Positions 2,418 through 19,901 of a stretch of 64,000 bases of DNA are shown here, in pieces. The notes beneath the pieces were generated by a model. It searched no databases. It was not told the DNA's origin and worked only from the letters and a program-made list of their open reading frames with translations. The stretch comes from Bacteroidales bacterium. Its GTDB lineage: Bacteria; Bacteroidota; Bacteroidia; Bacteroidales; UBA12077. The position numbers were made by a program, and so were the translations under genes. Every line of letters starts with the position of its first letter. The first letter of the stretch is position 1. The stretch is from positions 1 through 64,000 of the forward strand of contig JANQHR010000052.1 in NCBI GenBank assembly GCA_028282585.1, in the 5' to 3' direction.

Positions 2418-3008
2418 TTAAGTTAACAACAAACTTAAATTTTTCTTTTCGACCAACTTACGCAAGTTAATTAATGCATATCTCATTCTTCCCAATGCAG
2501 TATTTATACTAACATTAGTTTGATCTGCAATTTCTTTAAAGCTCAATCCCATAAAATGTCTTAAAACAATTACTTCCTTTTGCTCATCAGGTAAATGCTC
2601 AACTAGCGCCCTTACATCGGTCATTATCTGATTGTGTATTATATTTTCCTCAATTGTTTTATCAGAAAATTTGGATGAATTGAATATGTCCATTTCATAA
2701 TCATCATTCGAACAAGTCTTCATTTGCTTGTCTTTTCTAAAATGGTCAATAATTAAATTATGTGCAATTCGAATTACCCATGAAATGAATTTACCATTCT
2801 CCTGATACCTGCCTGAGTTTAAGGACTTAACTACTTTAATAAAAGTTTCCTGGAAGATATCCTGAGCGAGGTGCTCATTTTTTACCATTAGTAAGATATA
2901 GGTATAAACCTTATCTTTGTGTCGTTTAATTAGGATTTCGAAACTCGATTGTTCACCATCAATAAACCTTTTTACTAGTTCATGATCGGTAAGTTTTGAT
3001 TTTTTCAA
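2418..3008 (-). CDS. ECF-type RNA polymerase sigma-70 factor
   Basis: DIFQETFIK, SWVIRIAHNLIIDHFRK (region 2); LSFKEIA...SINTALGRMRYA (region 4). Confidence 0.95.
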   Translation of the reverse strand: MKKSKLTDHELVKRFIDGEQSSFEILIKRHKDKVYTYILLMVKNEHLAQDIFQETFIKVVKSLNSGRYQENGKFISWVIRIAHNLIIDHFRKDKQMKTCSNDDYEMDIFNSSKFSDKTIEENIIHNQIMTDVRALVEHLPDEQKEVIVLRHFMGLSFKEIADQTNVSINTALGRMRYALINLRKLVEKKNLSLLLT

Positions 3009-3185: not shown

Positions 3186-5984
3186 ATGCCAAACAAAGAA
3201 CAATTTATTCAGATAAAAGGTGCAAAAGTCCACAATTTAAAGAACATCAGCATTAACATAGCCCGCAACAAACTTGTTGTTATAACCGGTGTATCGGGCT
3301 CGGGGAAATCATCCCTGGCGTTTGATACCATTTACGCAGAAGGCCAAAGAAGATACGTAGAAAGCTTATCGTCTTATGCTCGACAATTTCTGGGTAAAAT
3401 AAACAAACCGGATGTTGAATTTATCCATGGTATACCGCCCGCTATTGCCATTGAACAAAAAGTTAATACAAGAAACCCACGATCTACCGTTGGTACTTCT
3501 ACCGAAGTTTACGACTATTTGAAACTTTTGTTTGCCCGAATTGGAAAAACATATTCTCCTATCTCAAATAAAATTGTAAAGAGACACTTAGTAACTGATG
3601 TTGTAAACTACATTATAAACTATCCTGAAAAAACTAAAATGTTAATTCTTTCTCCTTTTGAAAAGAAGAATGGTAAATCTTTTGGCGAATATTTAGAACA
3701 ACTTCAAAACGCAGGTGTTTCAAGAATTGAACAGAACTTTAATATCTTTAAAATATCAGAATTATTTCAAGACCAATCTCCTGTAAATGAGAAAGAAGCG
3801 ATTAATTTAGTTGTTGATCGTATCAGTGTTTCAAACAATGAAGATTCATTAAGCCGATTTGCAGATTCAGTTCAAACTGCCTTTTCTGAAAGTAATGGCT
3901 ACTGTATAATAAAGGTATTTGATGATAAGAAAACGTCTGAAAAATTTTCTAATAAATTTGAAGCAGATGGAATTGAATTTGAAGAGCCAAATGTTCATAC
4001 ATTTAGTTTTAATAATCCTATGGGTGCATGTCCGCGTTGCGAAGGATATGGTAAAATAATTGGTATTGATGAAGATCTAGTAGTTCCAAATAAAGGTTTA
4101 TCAATTTACGAAGAAGCTATTGCTTGCTGGAGAGGAGAAAAAATGCAAGAATGGAAAAATCGATTGGTATATAATGCTGATAAATTTAACTTTCCGATAC
4201 ATAAACCATATTTCGATTTAACCAATGAACAAAAGCAATTGCTTTGGACCGGAAATAAATATTTCTGGGGGTTAAATGCCTTTTTTGAGCATCTCGAAGA
4301 AAAGAAATATAAAATTCAGTATCGAGTTATGTTGTCCAGATATCGGGGGAAAACAACCTGTCCGGATTGTAGAGGAACCCGGTTAAAGAAAGAAGCATCT
4401 TATGTTAAAATAGGAAAAAAATCATTACAAGATTTGGTATTACTGCCAATTGATGAGCTACAAGGATTTTTCAAAAAGCTTAAACTGACTGATTACGAAA
4501 AAGATGTTTCAAAACGAATTCTGATTGAAATAAATAGCCGTTTAGATTTTTTAATGAATGTTGGATTAGGTTATTTAACTTTAAATCGTTTATCTTCTAC
4601 TCTATCCGGAGGAGAATCCCAAAGAATCAACTTAGCAACTTCATTAGGAAGTAGTTTGGTAGGGTCGTTATATATTCTGGATGAACCAAGTATTGGACTC
4701 CACCCCAGAGACAATGATCGATTGATAAAAGTTTTAAAACAACTTCAAAATATTGGTAATACCGTAATTGTTGTTGAACATGATGAAGATATAATCAGAT
4801 CAGCTGATGAAATTATTGATATTGGCCCTTTTGCTGGCCGCTTAGGTGGTGAAATAATTTTTCAAGGTGATAAAAATCAAATTATTGAAAGCAATAATAG
4901 CCTAACGGCAAAGTATTTAACCGGAAAGGAAATAATTTCAATTCCAAAACAACGAAGAAAATGGAATAATTATATTGAATTGTTAGGTGCAAGAGAAAAC
5001 AACTTAAAAAATGTAAATGTTAAATTTCCTCTTAACGTTTTAACTGTAATAACAGGAGTTAGTGGTTCAGGTAAATCATCATTGGTTAAAAATATACTCT
5101 CTCCTGCTTTAAGTAAAATTTTATTAGGTACAGGCGAAAAAACAGGCAAATACGATAAACTTAATGGTGATATAAATGGTTTAAATAGCATTGAATTTGT
5201 TGATCAAAATCCAATAGGCAAATCTTCGCGTTCAAATCCTGTAACATACCTTAAAGCATATGATGAAATAAGAAAACTTTATGCTGCCCAACAATTATCT
5301 AAAATAAATAATTTTAAAGCGTCGCATTATTCTTTTAATATAGATGGAGGTCGATGTGAAGAGTGCCAGGGTGAAGGAGTTATTAAAGTAGAAATGCAAT
5401 TTATGGCTGATGTTACGTTGATATGTGATCATTGCCACGGAAGAAGGTTCAAGGACGAGATTTTAGAGGTAAAGTATCGCAAAAAGAATATTTATGATGT
5501 TCTTGAAATGACTGTAAATGAAGCTATCGAATTTTTTAGTGAAGGTAAAGGGTCAACAGAAAAAAGAATTGTTGATAAACTTTCTCCATTAGCTGAAGTG
5601 GGATTAGGTTATATTAAACTTGGACAATCGTCCAGTACACTAAGTGGTGGGGAAAGCCAGCGAGTAAAGCTTGCATCTTTCCTAAGTAAGGAGAATGCGA
5701 AACAATCTACTTTATTTATTTTTGATGAGCCAACCACAGGTCTGCACTTCCATGATATAAAAAAGCTCTTGGAAGCATTTAATGCTTTAATTGCAAGAGG
5801 CAATTCCGTTTTAATTATAGAACATAATCTTGAGGTTATTAAGTCTGCTGATTGGATCATTGATCTCGGCCCTGAAGGAGGAAAACAAGGTGGAAAAATT
5901 GTTTTCGAAGGAACTCCGGAAGAATTAATTAAAGTTAAAGAATCTTATACAGGGCAATATTTAATTGAAAAATTAAGAAGCTAA
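3186..5984 (+). CDS. uvrA: Excinuclease ABC subunit A
   Basis: Two [10 protein letters not shown] Walker A motifs, LSGGESQR signatures, Zn fingers, [10 protein letters not shown]-terminus. Confidence 0.97.
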
Positions 5985-7215: not shown

Positions 7216-7779
7216 ATGAATATTGAAATAAGACCTTTGACAAAAGATTTAAAAGACGATTATTTGTTTTTCTTTGATAATATGATTTTCAAAGAAAATC
7301 CTGATTGGTCAATTTGTTATTGTTACGACTATCACTTCGTTGGAGATGTAGCAAAATGTACTCGTGAATCTAATCGTTCTTCGGTAATAAATCTTATCAA
7401 TGAAAATAAGCTGACAGGTTATTTGGTCTTTGAAAATGATAAACCCATCGGATGGTGTAATGCAAATAACAGATTAAATTACCAAAGATTACTAAAAGAC
7501 TATGATTTGATTGATAATCCTGATGATAAAGTTTGTTCAATTGTTTGTTTTTTAATACATCCCGATTATAGAAGACAAGGGATTGCTCAAAAGATTCTTG
7601 AAAAAATTATTACGGATTATTCAAATAAGGACTATGATTATATTGAAGCGTATCCGAAAAAAGGAGAATTATCGTGCGAGAGAAATTTCAAAGGGCCTTT
7701 GGAATTATATAAAAGACATGATTTCAAGATAAATAAAGAGTATGATGATTATTATGTAATGAGAAAAAAATTAAAATAA
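7216..7779 (+). CDS. GNAT family N-acetyltransferase
   Basis: CFLIHPDYRRQGIA motif A, IEAYP. Confidence 0.9.
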   Translation: MNIEIRPLTKDLKDDYLFFFDNMIFKENPDWSICYCYDYHFVGDVAKCTRESNRSSVINLINENKLTGYLVFENDKPIGWCNANNRLNYQRLLKDYDLIDNPDDKVCSIVCFLIHPDYRRQGIAQKILEKIITDYSNKDYDYIEAYPKKGELSCERNFKGPLELYKRHDFKINKEYDDYYVMRKKLK

Positions 7780-9534: not shown

Positions 9535-9575
9535 CCAGAACAGTCGCGATCCCCTATAAATCATCCGAACAGAAC

Positions 9576-9616
9576 CGACCGCAAGGTCGTGAAAGTTCGA
9601 ATCTTTTCCAGGGTAC
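9576..9616 (+). pseudogene. 3' half of a tRNA (Leu-type, long variable arm)
   Basis: GACC-GCAA-GGTC variable arm, GAAAG-TTCGAAT-CTTTT T-arm, CCAGGGTA acceptor strand; 5' half absent. Confidence 0.65.
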
Positions 9617-9618
9617 AA

Positions 9619-9659
9619 AAAAAAACTCCCGACTGATTTAATTCGGTTGGGAGTTTTTT
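9619..9659. terminator. Bidirectional intrinsic terminator
   Basis: AAAAAACTCCCGACTGA...TCGGTTGGGAGTTTTTT. Confidence 0.75.
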
Positions 9660-9696
9660 ATTTATTCATTTTTTTAGAACAAACTGGATAATGCAT

Positions 9697-10707
9697 TTAA
9701 AAAATCTTTTTTTCTTTTAATATTTTCACCCGTTTCACCATTTTACTAAAATCCTTTTGGTATTGCCTATTCTTCTCAGTTTTACGACGATTTAAAAAGG
9801 CAAGTTCTTTTTTTAAGTGCAAATAGCTATCGTAGCGTTCCGGACTGATATTGCCTTTCTCTAATTCAGATTGCACTGCACAACCTGGCTCTCCTTCGTG
9901 CTGACAATCGTTGAATTTACAATACTGTGCAATTTCTGAAATATCTGTAAAAGTATTATCTAAAGCCTCATCCTCTGCCCACAGCTGAACTTCCCTTAAG
10001 CCGGGCGAATCAATAATATACCCCCCACTCTCCAGTTCAAACATAAACGAGGCAGATGTCGTATGTCGCCCTCTTTTATCTTTCTGTCTTATCTCGTTGG
10101 TTTTTTGCAGATCTTCTTTTAACAAACAATTTGTAAGCGTTGATTTACCAACACCCGAAGGTCCGATAAATACACCTGCTTTCCCATTTGATAAATAACT
10201 TTCAATTGCAGCAATACCTCTTCCATCCTCAACACTGGTTGTTAAAACATCAACACCGGGAGCAATGGTTTCGGCTTGATATTGAACAAACTCAGCTTCA
10301 TCGTTAAGGTCAGCTTTGTTTAATACAATTAGCGGAGTAGCACCACTATCCCAGGCAATGGCAGTTAATCTCTCCAGTAACCTGTCGGAGTAATTACGTC
10401 CACCATCTAAACCTAAAACAATCACTACATAATCAATATTAGCTGCTAATACTTGCTCTTCGGTAGTAACACCTGCTGTTTTCCTGCTTATTTGAGTTTT
10501 TCTTTCCAGCACTTTTTCTATCTGAACCAAATTCTCGTACTCGTTAAATTCCACCCAATCGCCAACACAAGGAAATTCGCTTTTATTTTGTATTGTCTGA
10601 AAATATTTTCCTTTCAGCTTAGCTTGTTTAATATCTGTTCCAATTTGTATTTTGTAGGTATCATATTGTTTTTCTACAATGCAACCTTTTTTATTATTTG
10701 TATACAT
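9697..10707 (-). CDS. rsgA: Ribosome small subunit-dependent GTPase A (accessory paralog type)
   Basis: Circularly permuted GTPase: NKAD, GPSGVGKST, GRHTT, DSPG; Zn site CKFNDCQHEGEPGC. Confidence 0.92.
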   Translation of the reverse strand: MYTNNKKGCIVEKQYDTYKIQIGTDIKQAKLKGKYFQTIQNKSEFPCVGDWVEFNEYENLVQIEKVLERKTQISRKTAGVTTEEQVLAANIDYVVIVLGLDGGRNYSDRLLERLTAIAWDSGATPLIVLNKADLNDEAEFVQYQAETIAPGVDVLTTSVEDGRGIAAIESYLSNGKAGVFIGPSGVGKSTLTNCLLKEDLQKTNEIRQKDKRGRHTTSASFMFELESGGYIIDSPGLREVQLWAEDEALDNTFTDISEIAQYCKFNDCQHEGEPGCAVQSELEKGNISPERYDSYLHLKKELAFLNRRKTEKNRQYQKDFSKMVKRVKILKEKKIF

Positions 10708-11122
10708 CTTCTCCTCCTTTCTCCATACTTATTTTATGTAAAGTCGAAATCATTGTTTTTGATGGAAATGGTAACGACATCAATGGTTCTGCTGCCATTG
10801 TAAGTAATAGCAACTCGTTATCATCAGCTGCAATCCGATTTAGCTTGATGGTATGGCACTTGGTGCATCGATGAATGATCGACCATTCTTTATTTTGTTG
10901 AACGTAAATGCTTATTGGTTTCATTATTCCCCTGCAACTCGCTCGTCGGTCGCCGGGTATTATGTCCACATGAATGCTACATAAGCAATGAGGACAGTGA
11001 TTTCTTTGTTTCCCACCAAACTCTACAGGAGGTACAGCCTTTCCACAAGAGGCACAGATAAATGACTCCATAGGATTTTCATGTATTATTTTATTACGTG
11101 ACATTTTTTTTGCGTTAAGCAC
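10694..11122 (-). CDS. RNHCP domain protein
   Basis: FICASCG, QRNHCPHCLCSIHVDIIPGDR, HRCTKC. Confidence 0.92.
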   Translation of the reverse strand: MLNAKKMSRNKIIHENPMESFICASCGKAVPPVEFGGKQRNHCPHCLCSIHVDIIPGDRRASCRGIMKPISIYVQQNKEWSIIHRCTKCHTIKLNRIAADDNELLLLTMAAEPLMSLPFPSKTMISTLHKISMEKGGEDVYK

Positions 11123-11247
11123 AATTACTAATTGAGTTTAGCAATTTAGCCAATATAAACACTAAGAATATTTATATAGAAATAACTCTGGCAAGAATTT
11201 GCCTGAGTACAAATGGAATAATCAAAGTCTGTTACAACAATGATTAT

Positions 11248-11280
11248 TTACTTAACACGAACCAGAATAGTCTTAATCAT
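11248..11280 (-). CDS. Putative leader peptide MIKTILVRVK
   Basis: 10-codon uORF between the TATATTTG promoter and the RNHCP gene; ends in R-V-K (+X+). Confidence 0.5.
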   Translation of the reverse strand: MIKTILVRVK

Positions 11281-11298
11281 CAAATAATTTTACGACCG

Positions 11299-11306
11299 CA
11301 AATATA
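11299..11306 (-). promoter_or_regulatory. Bacteroidota sigma-A -7 element
   Basis: TATATTTG on the minus strand upstream of the uORF-RNHCP-rsgA unit. Confidence 0.55.
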
Positions 11307-11841: not shown

Positions 11842-12696
11842 GTGAAAAGGAAAGAACTTAAAATAGTTAAAGCACTGACGAATGTGAATGACAAAAAACG
11901 TATTGTCTTAAATGATATAGGTTGGACTAGCCGTGTTTACATTATAGATGATGGCGAATATGTTTTTAAATTTTTAAAAAATAAAAAATATCAAGAGGAA
12001 CTTGAACACGAAATAAATATTTTGAAGCTAATAAAAAATCACAAATTCAACATAAATATTCCCTTAATCGGTTGGGTTGGAAAAGATAACGCATACATAG
12101 GTTTCAAAGGAGTGACAGGAAAGTCAATGACAACAGAAATAATAAATGAATTAAATGAAGAACAAAAGAGAAAAATAGGCGCACAAATCGGAATCTTCAT
12201 AAAAAAGCTTCATGCCATAGACTATCATGGTAAAAGCCCAAACAGCGAAAGTAATGTAATTGAATGGTTTCAGGAATCGTTTTGCAAAAAAAAGCGCACA
12301 TTGAAAAAATACTTTAATAAAAATGAACTTGCATCCATTGAAAAACTTTTAACAAGCTTGCCGGAAAAGTCTGCAAAATATGGGATAGAAGAAGTTTTTT
12401 GCCACGGCGATTTAGGCTACAATAATATCATACTATCCGACAATCTTGAAGTCGGGATAATTGACTTTGGCGATGCAGGCAATCTTGACAAGTCGTATGA
12501 CTTTATTGGTTTAGAAGATGATGTTATACTTGATGCGGCAATATTAGCATATGGTGGCGATAATGTTTTAAGGGAAAAAGTTGCAATAAGGCGGCAGTTA
12601 TTACCACTTATGGAAATGTTATTTTTGATTGACAGGAATGAAAAGGTAGAAATTGAAAAGTGTGCACGTAAAATGCGCGTTAATTTAAAAAACTGA
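11842..12696 (+). CDS. Aminoglycoside phosphotransferase (APH)-family kinase
   Basis: YVFKF, HGDLGYNN (Brenner motif), IIDFGDA. Confidence 0.88.
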   Translation: MKRKELKIVKALTNVNDKKRIVLNDIGWTSRVYIIDDGEYVFKFLKNKKYQEELEHEINILKLIKNHKFNINIPLIGWVGKDNAYIGFKGVTGKSMTTEIINELNEEQKRKIGAQIGIFIKKLHAIDYHGKSPNSESNVIEWFQESFCKKKRTLKKYFNKNELASIEKLLTSLPEKSAKYGIEEVFCHGDLGYNNIILSDNLEVGIIDFGDAGNLDKSYDFIGLEDDVILDAAILAYGGDNVLREKVAIRRQLLPLMEMLFLIDRNEKVEIEKCARKMRVNLKN

Positions 12697-12894: not shown

Positions 12895-13809
12895 ATGAAT
12901 AAGAGTACTACAATATTAAAATACACATCAGATATTAACAGGGTGTTTGACTATATTGAGAAAAACATAAGAAAAGATATTGAATTGGAACAACTCACCG
13001 AGGTTGTCAATATGTCAAAGTATCATTTTATAAGAATTTTTAAGTCAGTTATGAACGAAACGCCTATGGCTTTTGTACAACGTATTCGATTAGAACGAGT
13101 AGCTTCACAATTGGTAAACAAACCAAATGAAAGCATTACCAATATAGCTCAAGAGTATAATTATGATAATATGACAGTGTTTGCTAAAAACTTTAAAATG
13201 CGATTCGGCATATCTGCAACGGAATGGCGTAAAAATAGCAATAAAAGCAAACTAAATAGCAATAATGAAATACTAGCAAATGAATTTTCAGCATATTTTT
13301 GTGATCATTCACAAACAATTAAATGGAGGACAGATATGTTACAAAACAAAACTATCGTGGTAAATGAATTTCCTATTATGACAGTTGCTTATGTAAGGCA
13401 TACCGGACAAAATGACGGTGATGTAGCGTTATATAAAGGTTTGCAAAATAAACTCTTTACTTGGGCTGCAAGTAGAAACCTGTTGAATGTAAATTCTAAG
13501 TACATTATAATTTACCACGATGACCCTAACGTGGTACCAGCAGAAAAACAACGAATGAGTCTATGTCTTACTATTCCTTCTACAACTAAAGTAGATGGTG
13601 ATATTGGGAAAATGGAGGTTCAAGGAGGAAAATACGTTGTAGCAAGGTTCGAATTAAAATCAGATGAGTTTCATTTGGCATGGAAGTATATAATGGATTG
13701 GTTTCCAAAGAGTGGTTATAAACCAAGAAACGAACCCCCTTTTGAGATGTACCCTGAAGAGCCAATAGCTGACAATTTTAAGGTAGATATTTGCATTCCG
13801 ATAGATTAA
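12895..13809 (+). CDS. AraC family regulator with a GyrI-like effector domain
   Basis: N-terminal double HTH (MSKYHFIRIFK...RIRLE); C-terminal GGKYVVARF, DWFPKSGY, DICIPI. Confidence 0.92.
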   Translation: MNKSTTILKYTSDINRVFDYIEKNIRKDIELEQLTEVVNMSKYHFIRIFKSVMNETPMAFVQRIRLERVASQLVNKPNESITNIAQEYNYDNMTVFAKNFKMRFGISATEWRKNSNKSKLNSNNEILANEFSAYFCDHSQTIKWRTDMLQNKTIVVNEFPIMTVAYVRHTGQNDGDVALYKGLQNKLFTWAASRNLLNVNSKYIIIYHDDPNVVPAEKQRMSLCLTIPSTTKVDGDIGKMEVQGGKYVVARFELKSDEFHLAWKYIMDWFPKSGYKPRNEPPFEMYPEEPIADNFKVDICIPID

Positions 13810-18494: not shown

Positions 18495-19004
18495 GTGTAT
18501 ATAAACATAGAAACAGAAAGATTAATAATAAGGCCACTAAGTTTGGAGGATGCCGAATTTATAGTTGATTTGGTTAATTCTGAGGGCTGGCTGAAATTTA
18601 TAGGAGATAGAAATATTTCTGATAAAAATGATGCAAGAAACTACATTCAAAAGATACTTGATAACGCAAATTTTTATTACAATGTTTTTGAGTTAAAAAA
18701 AACACGAAAGGCTATTGGAATAGTAACATTTCTCAAACGAGATGATGAGAAATTCCCTGACATTGGATTTGCTTTATTGCCTGAATTTGAAAAAAACGGA
18801 TATACCCTTGAGGCAAGTAAGTCGTATCTTGAGAAAATAGAAAACTCAAACAAATACGACAATATAATTGCAATCACTATGCCGGACAATCAAAAATCGA
18901 TTAACTTGTTACAGAAGCTTGGATTTCATTATGTAAATAGTTACGAAAAAGGTGGAGAGATTTTATCTTACTATACTTTAAAAAATGTAAAAGCCACCAA
19001 GTAA
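18495..19004 (+). CDS. GNAT N-acetyltransferase (RimJ/RimL type)
   Basis: IETERLIIRP, DIGFALLPE, NQKSINLLQKLGF. Confidence 0.9.
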   Translation: MYINIETERLIIRPLSLEDAEFIVDLVNSEGWLKFIGDRNISDKNDARNYIQKILDNANFYYNVFELKKTRKAIGIVTFLKRDDEKFPDIGFALLPEFEKNGYTLEASKSYLEKIENSNKYDNIIAITMPDNQKSINLLQKLGFHYVNSYEKGGEILSYYTLKNVKATK

Positions 19005-19064: not shown

Positions 19065-19901
19065 TTGTACAACCTCAGAACGAACTTTAACAATATAGTT
19101 ATGATTGAGAATAAACAAGTTTATTATCCTAGTATAGGGCAAAGCTGGGGAATTGTTGGATTAGCAATACTTTCCATGTTATTATTTAGCCCCGTAAATA
19201 TTATACTAACCAATATATTAGGAAAGGAAGTATCTTTTTTAGTTTATTACTTATTAGCAATGGGAGTTCCTTTTGGCATTGCTCATTTGATAAGAAATAA
19301 AAGAACAGGGATTAATAATTACAATTTTAATCTTAGTTCTATAAAATTAATGGTATTAGTTTCTATCTCTACAATTTCAATTCAGACCGGAGTAATTTCA
19401 CCAATCGTTAATTCATTACCCATGCCAGAGTTTATGAAAAAGATATTTCTAGAATTTGCAAATCAAAACGGAGTATTTTCTTTTATAGCAATTGTTATTG
19501 CCGCACCAATAATTGAAGAATTGATTTTTAGAGGAATTATTCTAGATGGACTTTTACGAAGATATTCTCCAGTTAAATCAATCATTTTATCAAGTATTCT
19601 TTTCGGAATCGTTCATCTAAACCCTTGGCAGTTCGTTAGCGCTTTGATTATTGGGTTATTTTCAGGTTGGATTTATTATAGAACAAAAAAATTATCACTA
19701 TCAATCTTAATTCATTTAATAAATAACCTTGTTGCCTTTTTAGGAATATATTTTATGGATATAGAAATAATGATCAATGAATCACTAACAAAATTGTATG
19801 GTGGTTTTACAAACATGATTTTAATTACTATTGGATCAATATTAGTGTCAATAATAGGTATTTTTATATTGAGAAAAGAATTTAATGGTTTGAAAAATTA
19901 A
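19065..19901 (+). CDS. CPBP/Abi family intramembrane metalloprotease (likely start 19101)
   Basis: PIIEELIFRG, FGIVH, HLINN. Confidence 0.92.
   Translation: MYNLRTNFNNIVMIENKQVYYPSIGQSWGIVGLAILSMLLFSPVNIILTNILGKEVSFLVYYLLAMGVPFGIAHLIRNKRTGINNYNFNLSSIKLMVLVSISTISIQTGVISPIVNSLPMPEFMKKIFLEFANQNGVFSFIAIVIAAPIIEELIFRGIILDGLLRRYSPVKSIILSSILFGIVHLNPWQFVSALIIGLFSGWIYYRTKKLSLSILIHLINNLVAFLGIYFMDIEIMINESLTKLYGGFTNMILITIGSILVSIIGIFILRKEFNGLKN

Follow-up and report, generated by a model that had tools for sequence, protein, structure and literature searches.

The 190 nt between the promoter and the RNHCP gene of a two-gene operon in a Bacteroidales genome probably constitute a leader-peptide attenuator of a new family, which would drive an accessory, probably stress- or drug-inducible module directed at the 30S ribosomal subunit. 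The DNA analyzed (the window, 64,000 nt) comprises positions 1-64,000 of contig JANQHR010000052.1 (C116 in our analysis) from Bacteroidales bacterium, assembly GCA_028282585.1. The genome of the window (G000) amounts to 4.9 Mb in 173 contigs, with a contamination estimate of 3.89%. All elements of the operon lie on the minus strand: a promoter box, an upstream open reading frame (uORF) of ten codons, the leader helices, the gene for an RNHCP-domain protein (PF12647) and an overlapping gene for an RsgA paralog (Table 1). The promoter box, the uORF and both genes were found where a preliminary description of this DNA had placed them. The same description proposed leader-peptide attenuation, and the anatomy supports this, as the uORF frame is kept open and the uORF abuts and pairs with helices covering the region upstream of the RNHCP start. 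The argument is built on features that were observed, namely this anatomy, its conservation, the covariation of the helices, the maintenance of the uORF frame and the linkage of the genes. Among the genomes searched, the attenuator family is confined to Bacteroidales, one order of Bacteroidota.

All 32 aligned RNHCP homologs (alignment A1) start at the Met encoded by ATG 11104. For this reason the RNHCP start was assigned to that codon and not to GTG 11122, and the spacer between the uORF stop and the RNHCP start is therefore 143 nt. The leader reported earlier is thus present, with its length corrected from ~125 nt. The RNHCP and rsgA reading frames overlap by 14 nt. The Rfam search gave no leader match at E <=1 between 10700 and 11900, and no tRNA was found there; seven weak Rfam leader or sRNA matches all fell on the terminator hairpin at the end of the operon (~9560-9706).

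Table 1. Features of the leader and the operon, with positions in the window.
Feature	Position	Strand	Basis
Bacteroidetes-type -7 promoter box (TAnnTTTG), letters TATATTTG	11299..11306	-	read from sequence
uORF, 10 codons and stop, MIKTILVRVK; ATG at 11280, TAA 11250-11248	11248..11280	-	
P0 5' strand (last three sense codons of the uORF and stop)	11249..11258	-	RNAalifold
P1 hairpin, begins immediately 3' of the uORF stop codon	11218..11247	-	RNAalifold and covariation
P2 hairpin, conserved loop and U-rich tail, terminator-like	11176..11207	-	pattern scan and covariation
P2b, A/U-rich hairpin, RNHCP-type leaders only	11153..11177	-	RNAalifold
P3 hairpin	11123..11146	-	RNAalifold
P0 3' strand, -17 to -8 relative to the RNHCP start codon	11112..11121	-	RNAalifold
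RNHCP-domain protein, 136 aa	10694..11104	-	PF12647, E 1.3e-36
Accessory RsgA-family GTPase, 336 aa	9697..10707	-	PF03193, E 3.6e-50; TIGR00157
Bidirectional intrinsic terminator at operon end	9620..9659	both	17-pair stem, T runs on either side

Conservation of the uORF and its peptide

Nine further RNHCP loci (L011-L015, L018 and L092-L094) have the same uORF upstream of the RNHCP gene, at an equal distance. It was not seen in the RNHCP loci of Tenacibaculum, Putridiphycobacter and Pseudoalteromonas or in those of other phyla. A covariance model of the full leader (R1) detected none in 82 other sources (81 RNHCP loci and the rsgA locus on contig C123, L004), with the exception of one match at E 0.46. 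Conservation of the uORF before RNHCP-rsgA homologs, which the preliminary description had proposed to test, is seen in ten leaders of one Bacteroidales lineage and not elsewhere. Together with leaders that precede a methyltransferase gene (see below), the set comprises 37 related leaders, 10 RNHCP-type and 27 methyltransferase-type, with 36 distinct sequences.

In 34 of the 37 leaders the uORF is 10 codons long; three leaders differ, with 8, 9 or 12 codons, and all the length changes are in frame. It is closed by TAA in 35 leaders and by TAG in two. Among the 36 distinct sequences, an early stop was found in the uORF frame in one case, compared with 29 and 30 cases in the +1 and +2 frames. 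Since frame 0 is open in contrast to the other two and indels occur only in frame, we conclude that the uORF is maintained as a reading frame.

The peptide is best conserved at its C-terminus. Val occupies position -2 in 36/37 leaders and is encoded by GTG (16), GTT (9), GTA (9) or GTC (2). Asp or Glu at -4 and Lys or Arg at -1 were each found in 30/37, and position -3 is variable (Leu 12, Arg 11, Ile 8, Ser 4, Met 1, Asp 1). The conserved end of the predicted peptide is therefore Asp/Glu-x-Val-Lys/Arg-stop. The preliminary description had read the Arg-Val-Lys at the end of the window uORF as a +X+ macrolide-arrest motif. As a conserved feature this did not hold, because R/K-x-R/K occurs in only 10/37 leaders, and the RNHCP-type leaders L014 and L093 have Ile-Val-Lys.

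The sequence TAnnTTTG is the Bacteroides -7 promoter consensus. Such a box is located 25-29 nt before the uORF ATG in 33 leaders and at -14 in one more (34/37 in total), and the usual spacing implies a 5' untranslated region (UTR) of roughly a dozen nucleotides. In the leader L128 (G066:C110, ~1489-1606), only ~6 nt separate the end of the box from the ATG of the uORF, which would be translated from a nearly leaderless transcript.

Structure of the leader RNA

The leader of the window shares 69-99% identity with those of its nine relatives, which is close to the values for the RNHCP coding sequence (73-98%). In the next 150 nt on the upstream side, identity is 47-54% in seven of the nine, and 70% and 97% in the two nearest. 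Together with the spacing of the promoter box and the open frame, these values speak against a chance arrangement. RNAalifold analysis of the ten RNHCP-type leaders returned five helices or hairpins, including the long-range helix P0 (columns 35-44 with 176-185). In this consensus structure, 93.3% of the cells can pair, versus 33-48% when the partners are slid. Changes on both sides were observed at nine pairs, versus one to four for slid partners, and none of 500 shuffles reached nine.

The support differs from helix to helix. P0 has 92% of its cells paired and one pair changed on both sides, and its summed pair probability is 6.5-9.8 in 9 of the 10 RNHCP-type leaders. For P1 and P2, which could be followed through all 37 leaders, 16 of 17 pairs show compensatory change, for example in 20/37 leaders at the P1 column pair 56/96. 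In P3, 5/9 pairs are changed on both sides. In P2b, 89% of the cells are paired, and the changes are one-sided only. The terminator pattern scan flagged 11203-11190 within P2, and the P2 tail contains a run of at least three U in 32/37 leaders and of at least four U in 16/37. The invariant GG of the uORF and the P2 loop, considered as partners in a pseudoknot, showed no consistent covariation, and neither did a GG:CC extension of P1.

When the footprint of a ribosome at the end of the uORF was masked in the window leader, P0 and P1 were lost from the minimum-energy fold, and the RNHCP region from -17 to -1 became single-stranded. P2, P2b and P3 stayed folded under the same mask. Parts of the operon are also represented in RNA-library contigs of relatives. 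One of them (233 nt, 4 differences; 11266-11034) begins within the uORF, crosses P2 and reaches RNHCP, and a second one spans the RNHCP/rsgA junction. These contigs are consistent with read-through and co-transcription; carry-over of DNA is possible, they give no starts, ends or levels, and uncovered stretches carry no information.

The same module precedes a methyltransferase gene

A second copy of the leader was found in the same genome at C123:11326-11524 (L102/L105). This copy consists of a 10-codon uORF, P1 and a U-tailed P2, and is followed by a gene coding for a 257-aa class I S-adenosylmethionine-dependent methyltransferase. This protein matches the solved but uncharacterized Bacteroides structures 3KKZ, 3T7R, 3SVZ and 3F4K with E values of 1e-110 to 1e-122, and it is referred to here as BT_2972-type. 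Scans of the window genome revealed no further leader copy, including none before the rsgA paralog on C123.

The uORF-P1-P2 module is present in 8/37 genomes of the genus (the window genome counted) and in 19/150 other genomes of the order. The additional matches all precede orthologs of the C123 methyltransferase, except for the RNHCP leader of G025, which is L011. Besides the window genome, 26 others from the genus and order have the methyltransferase-type arrangement. The model R2 had no match in a class-level sample of 150 other genomes, of which all except three belong to other orders of the class. The methyltransferase was not found near RNHCP in 89 loci. In the methyltransferase-type leaders, the uORF start codon and the first codons pair with nucleotides just before the main AUG, a pairing that came out as the best duplex in 23/25.

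No match in Rfam and no paper was found for the uORF-P1-P2 module, and the literature search on BT_2972/BVU_3255 yielded structure papers only. Literature searches on leader peptides and attenuation in Bacteroides and on the tetQ leader gave no relevant paper either. The authors of one report (PMC3225368) favor a small-molecule substrate for BT_2972. We regard the module as a new cis-regulatory leader family for Bacteroidales, with 37 examples and a presence in 19/150 of the other genomes sampled from the order, where little is known of how genes sense translation stress and to which models built on Shine-Dalgarno pairing do not apply. The BT_2972/BVU_3255 methyltransferases, with solved structures and unknown function, offer a test system in a genetically tractable genus.

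An accessory RsgA and its RNHCP partner

The genome holds four RsgA-family genes, on contigs C154, C45, C116 (the window) and C123. The copies on C154 (L001) and C45 (L002) are canonical, 314-329 aa in length, and each lies beside an exonuclease III gene. The gene on C123 (L004) codes for another long paralog. A separate housekeeping rsgA is therefore present, as the preliminary description would have it, and the window copy, one of four, is accessory. The presence of two canonical copies may reflect either a genuine duplication or a second organism in the bin, given the contamination estimate.

The window RsgA scores 184.7 bits with TIGR00157 against a cut-off of 100. It agrees with the family definition, which calls for a GTPase core in circular permutation, with an OB region at the N-terminus and a zinc finger at the C-terminus. 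The residues invariant in alignment A6 include the P-loop (G182-S189), NKxD (K131/D133), DxxG (D233/G236) and the C-x4-C-x-H-x5-C motif (C263/C268/H270/C276). A quick maximum-likelihood tree, for which no careful search was completed, places the RNHCP-linked RsgAs in a supported clade of their own, separate from both canonical copies, and nests a gammaproteobacterial sequence among those of Bacteroidota.

The RNHCP protein matches PF12647 with 124.8 bits against a cut-off of 24, over domain positions 2-89 of 90. The RNHCP motif is invariant in the 32 sequences of A1, in which the invariant residues are C17, C20, RNHCP at 34-38, C40, C57, H78, C80 and C83. The invariant Cys and His residues suggest two putative zinc sites. 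An AlphaFold2 (AF2) model of RNHCP had a confidence (pLDDT) of 79.6. A Foldseek search of the PDB with this model gave nothing at E <=0.001, the best matches being generic zinc-ribbon subunits at E >0.1. The best match of a wide VIA-align search reached Z 3.3, to chromo/SH3-like barrels, so that no convincing relative of solved fold was obtained, and the ESM Atlas returned only RNHCP clusters. Prediction of an RsgA-RNHCP complex from custom alignments scored 0.00, a result that weighs neither for nor against binding.

The association of the two proteins is seen in their genes. RNHCP occurs once in the window genome. Elsewhere in the genus it was found in only 1/36 genomes, and in other families of the order in 0/24; from this distribution we conclude that the RNHCP-rsgA operon is accessory. 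From a scan with one genome per species, the best 80 of 578 relatives' loci were kept. In 48 of these 80, RsgA adjoins RNHCP on the same strand (40 by tblastn at >=100 bits and 8 weaker, by Pfam RsgA_GTPase). In 16 of 23 long open reading frames tested, RsgA_GTPase and RNHCP are fused in one polypeptide. The loci belong to Bacteroidota, Spirochaetota, Bacillota, Actinomycetota, Pseudomonadota and Thermodesulfobacteriota. The RNHCP is up to 73% identical to Vibrio proteins, and a Vibrio coralliilyticus plasmid carries the order TetR-RNHCP-rsgA with an identical 14-nt RNHCP/rsgA overlap. This distribution fits horizontal spread of a two-part module. Adjacency, overlap and fusion over at least five phyla give the uncharacterized RNHCP its first functional anchor, as the partner of an accessory RsgA. 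Literature searches on RNHCP, and on RsgA paralogs and resistance, found no relevant paper.

Some loci deserve separate mention. The metagenome contig L094 carries a fragment of a DDE transposase (3-662) immediately before the leader, in keeping with mobility of the leader-RNHCP-rsgA unit. A divergent clade of fused RsgA-RNHCP proteins from Lachnospiraceae and other Bacillota (L034, L042, L043, L047, L049, L064, L077 and L079) forms a long branch in the quick tree, and its RsgA_GTPase scores are weak (40-72 bits). A role as a defense system was considered and rejected: PADLOC returned no match for RNHCP or the window RsgA and only weak P-loop matches for the fused protein, and the match of the methyltransferase was to a generic methyltransferase.

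Proposed mechanism and alternatives

In the mechanism that we favor, the uORF would be translated from its very short 5' UTR. P0, formed by the 3' end of the uORF and RNHCP positions -17 to -8, would close a junction of four hairpins (P1, P2, P2b and P3). Rapid termination and departure of the uORF ribosome would allow P0 and P1 to form, the A-rich initiation region of RNHCP would be held against a compact structure, and the operon would be poorly translated. Translation initiation in the group of this organism is not known to rely on Shine-Dalgarno pairing. A ribosome dwelling on the Asp/Glu-x-Val-Lys/Arg-stop end would cover the 5' sides of both P0 and P1. Because the last uORF codons pair with -17 to -8, such a ribosome should free the RNHCP start, and RNHCP and the overlapping rsgA would then be made together. 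The most likely candidate for the dwell signal is a translation inhibitor or another translation stress. The products would be the accessory RsgA GTPase and, as its obligate partner, the zinc-finger protein RNHCP, both probably acting on the 30S subunit. The two leader types presumably share one logic, in which a long-range helix joins the uORF to the main start region and has to be opened by a ribosome on the uORF.

Several points weigh against this attenuation mechanism. P0 leaves the AUG and the nucleotides from -7 to -1 unpaired, so the repression must be steric. For L092 the fold prediction gave no P0 (summed probability 0.44), and the single P0 pair with a double change follows from the strong conservation of both strands. 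The two leader types pair different parts of the uORF in their long-range helices, which is why the shared logic is a matter of inference. In the methyltransferase-type leaders, moreover, the duplex beats at least 99% of composition-matched shuffles in only 7/25 cases and mostly lies at about z -1. The third base of codon -5 is G in 37/37 leaders, and the P2 loop is conserved too. The peptide cannot explain these letters, which point to putative constraints at the level of the RNA or of a trans-acting factor. In the report cited above, BT_2972 produced in E. coli conferred no resistance to kanamycin, tetracyclines, erythromycin or chloramphenicol (PMC3225368). P2 is terminator-like and lacks an antiterminator, so a part of the mechanism is missing: no helix competing with P2 was found either in the ribosome-masked fold of the window or in a constrained consensus fold of the 37 leaders. 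A non-nested or protein-mediated mechanism could replace such a helix, and P2 could be a pause site, a partial terminator or a stabilizer. Finally, what we say of uORF translation and stalling, of the inducer, of the direction in which the switch works and of what the products do is inferred from these data.

The terminator-like hairpin leads to another explanation, in which ribosome-mediated transcription attenuation acts at P2 and its U tract, as in the hflXr, vmlR, bmrB and msrD leaders, and the long-range helix is secondary. We consider it unlikely, though it has its merits. No part of the module is more widely shared than P2 with its U-rich tail. P2 covaries strongly and was flagged by the terminator scan, and it is kept in both gene contexts, in which the 3' halves of the leaders differ. 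On the other hand, the P2 stem is short, the U tract is interrupted in the window, and P2 forms even when the uORF end and the P1 5' arm are masked, with no conserved competitor. The RNA-library contig that spans P2 also speaks against termination there, weakly, as contigs cannot show levels. The conserved unpaired letters, i.e., the GG at codons -5/-4 (37/37), the junction after P1 and the P2 loop, together with the architecture of a multi-helix junction, would suit an RNA that binds a ligand or a protein. This could be a riboswitch, an autogenous control by RNHCP or RsgA or a target of another factor, with the uORF passive or accessory. RsgA does bind structured rRNA. Such a reading seems quite improbable to us, as the open frame, the in-frame-only indels and the free wobble of the Val codon argue for translation, and no Rfam family matches. 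Autogenous control by RNHCP or RsgA, in particular, is not general, because the same module precedes an unrelated methyltransferase in 27 leaders.

The preliminary description had favored a macrolide sensor, in which the drug-bound ribosome stalls at Arg-Val-Lys, as on ErmDL, and induces a rescue or resistance module. R/K-x-R/K motifs are indeed known to stall macrolide-bound ribosomes, the uORF of the window and those of seven further RNHCP-type leaders end in Arg-Val-Lys, and the stall site would fall exactly on the P0 5' strand. We nevertheless judge this very improbable. The macrolide reading is not supported, since the motif is restricted to the minority of leaders given above, and most methyltransferase-type leaders have Leu, Ile or Ser at -3. 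RsgA acts on the 30S subunit, and macrolides bind in the tunnel of the 50S subunit. No erm, msr or mph gene lies under this leader, and none of the genes downstream of it (RNHCP and RsgA, or the BT_2972-type methyltransferase) scores above any resistance-family cut-off. A neighboring APH-family kinase reached 80 bits in its best NCBIfam match against a cut-off of 600 and was not assigned as a resistance gene.

Beyond the leader-peptide attenuator itself, a broader proposal may be put forward, which we hold to be doubtful at present. RNHCP and the RsgA paralog might represent a new class of inducible 30S protection or rescue factors, and Asp/Glu-x-Val-Lys-stop a lineage-specific arrest peptide of Bacteroidales that senses translation inhibitors at termination and drives the widespread BT_2972-type methyltransferase as well. 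If this were true, RNHCP would be a GTPase-binding zinc-finger partner, and the pair would be akin to HflXr, Tet(M)/Tet(Q), ABC-F and FusB-type proteins. The orphan BT_2972-type methyltransferase of gut Bacteroides would then gain a role in the same response.

Relation to known systems

The leader resembles the ermC, ermB and cat-86 attenuators in having a short uORF, a pairing that masks the downstream initiation region and a uORF-held ribosome that would open it. It differs from them in several respects. No sequence or Rfam relation was found, and the downstream genes are not known resistance genes. As the host group is not known to use Shine-Dalgarno pairing, the masked region is the one upstream of the AUG, held by a long-range helix closing a multi-hairpin junction, and the conserved peptide motif stands directly before the stop codon.

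The tetQ-rteA-rteB leader, whose leader peptide has three codons, comes from the same phylum, belongs to the same kind of control and drives a ribosome-directed GTPase. In Bacteroides CTnDOT it acts by translational attenuation in response to tetracycline, a ribosome inhibitor (PMC3809561). The CTnDOT leader is nevertheless different and much shorter, its product is an EF-G paralog and not RsgA, and no similarity was detected. The hflXr leader (rli80) of Listeria and the vmlR and msrD leaders share with the present one a uORF followed by a terminator before a gene for an accessory ribosome GTPase or ATPase that has a housekeeping paralog. Those leaders use mutually exclusive terminator and antiterminator helices, however, and no antiterminator was found here.

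The toiL uORF of E. coli topAI-yjhQ, which is reported to sense several classes of ribosome-targeting antibiotics (PMC12121999), may serve as a model of a stalling sensor that is not specific to one drug. Unlike our leader, toiL acts via Rho-dependent termination on a toxin-antitoxin pair, and its sequence is unrelated. SCO6149 of Streptomyces coelicolor, an RsgA/EngC paralog in the WblC/WhiB7 regulon, is controlled by a transcription factor and not by a cis leader.

Genomic context

A TetR gene is located directly upstream of RNHCP-rsgA in seven other loci and on the Vibrio plasmid, and a GNAT gene directly upstream of RNHCP in five. The other neighbors of RNHCP, apart from RsgA, are heterogeneous. 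In the window, accessory genes lie near the operon at 7216-7779, 11842-12696, 12895-13809, 18495-19004 and 19065-19901. This cluster is of a xenobiotic type and codes for two GNATs, the APH-family kinase, an AraC regulator with a GyrI-like ligand domain and an Rce1-like CAAX protease. These APH, AraC-GyrI and GNAT genes and the nearby UvrA paralog, together with the TetR control elsewhere and the FBP-domain neighbors on a Streptomyces plasmid, hint at a drug or a translation stress as the signal. The location of the pair behind a leader peptide here and behind TetR elsewhere suggests that second rsgA copies are stress- or drug-induced ribosome factors, a class that has not yet been studied.

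In four of the RNHCP loci (L016, L017, L019 and L020), a short perfect or near-perfect palindrome, likely an operator, is situated between the TetR gene and RNHCP. The locus 3995-5465 of the Streptomyces sp. plasmid NZ_CP108735.1 (L134) contains a tandem pair of RNHCP genes and, after it, a gene annotated as 'FBP domain-containing protein'. Its surroundings include a Tn3 transposase fragment, an aminoglycoside phosphotransferase fragment and an integrase, with no rsgA in the 8 kb viewed. A few kilobases from the operon, the window contains at 3186-5984 (plus strand) a gene for a 932-aa UvrA-like paralog with UvrA interaction, DNA-binding and ABC ATPase domains, which may be either the housekeeping uvrA or a second copy. 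An extracytoplasmic function (ECF) sigma factor gene lies near it, at 2418-3008 on the minus strand.

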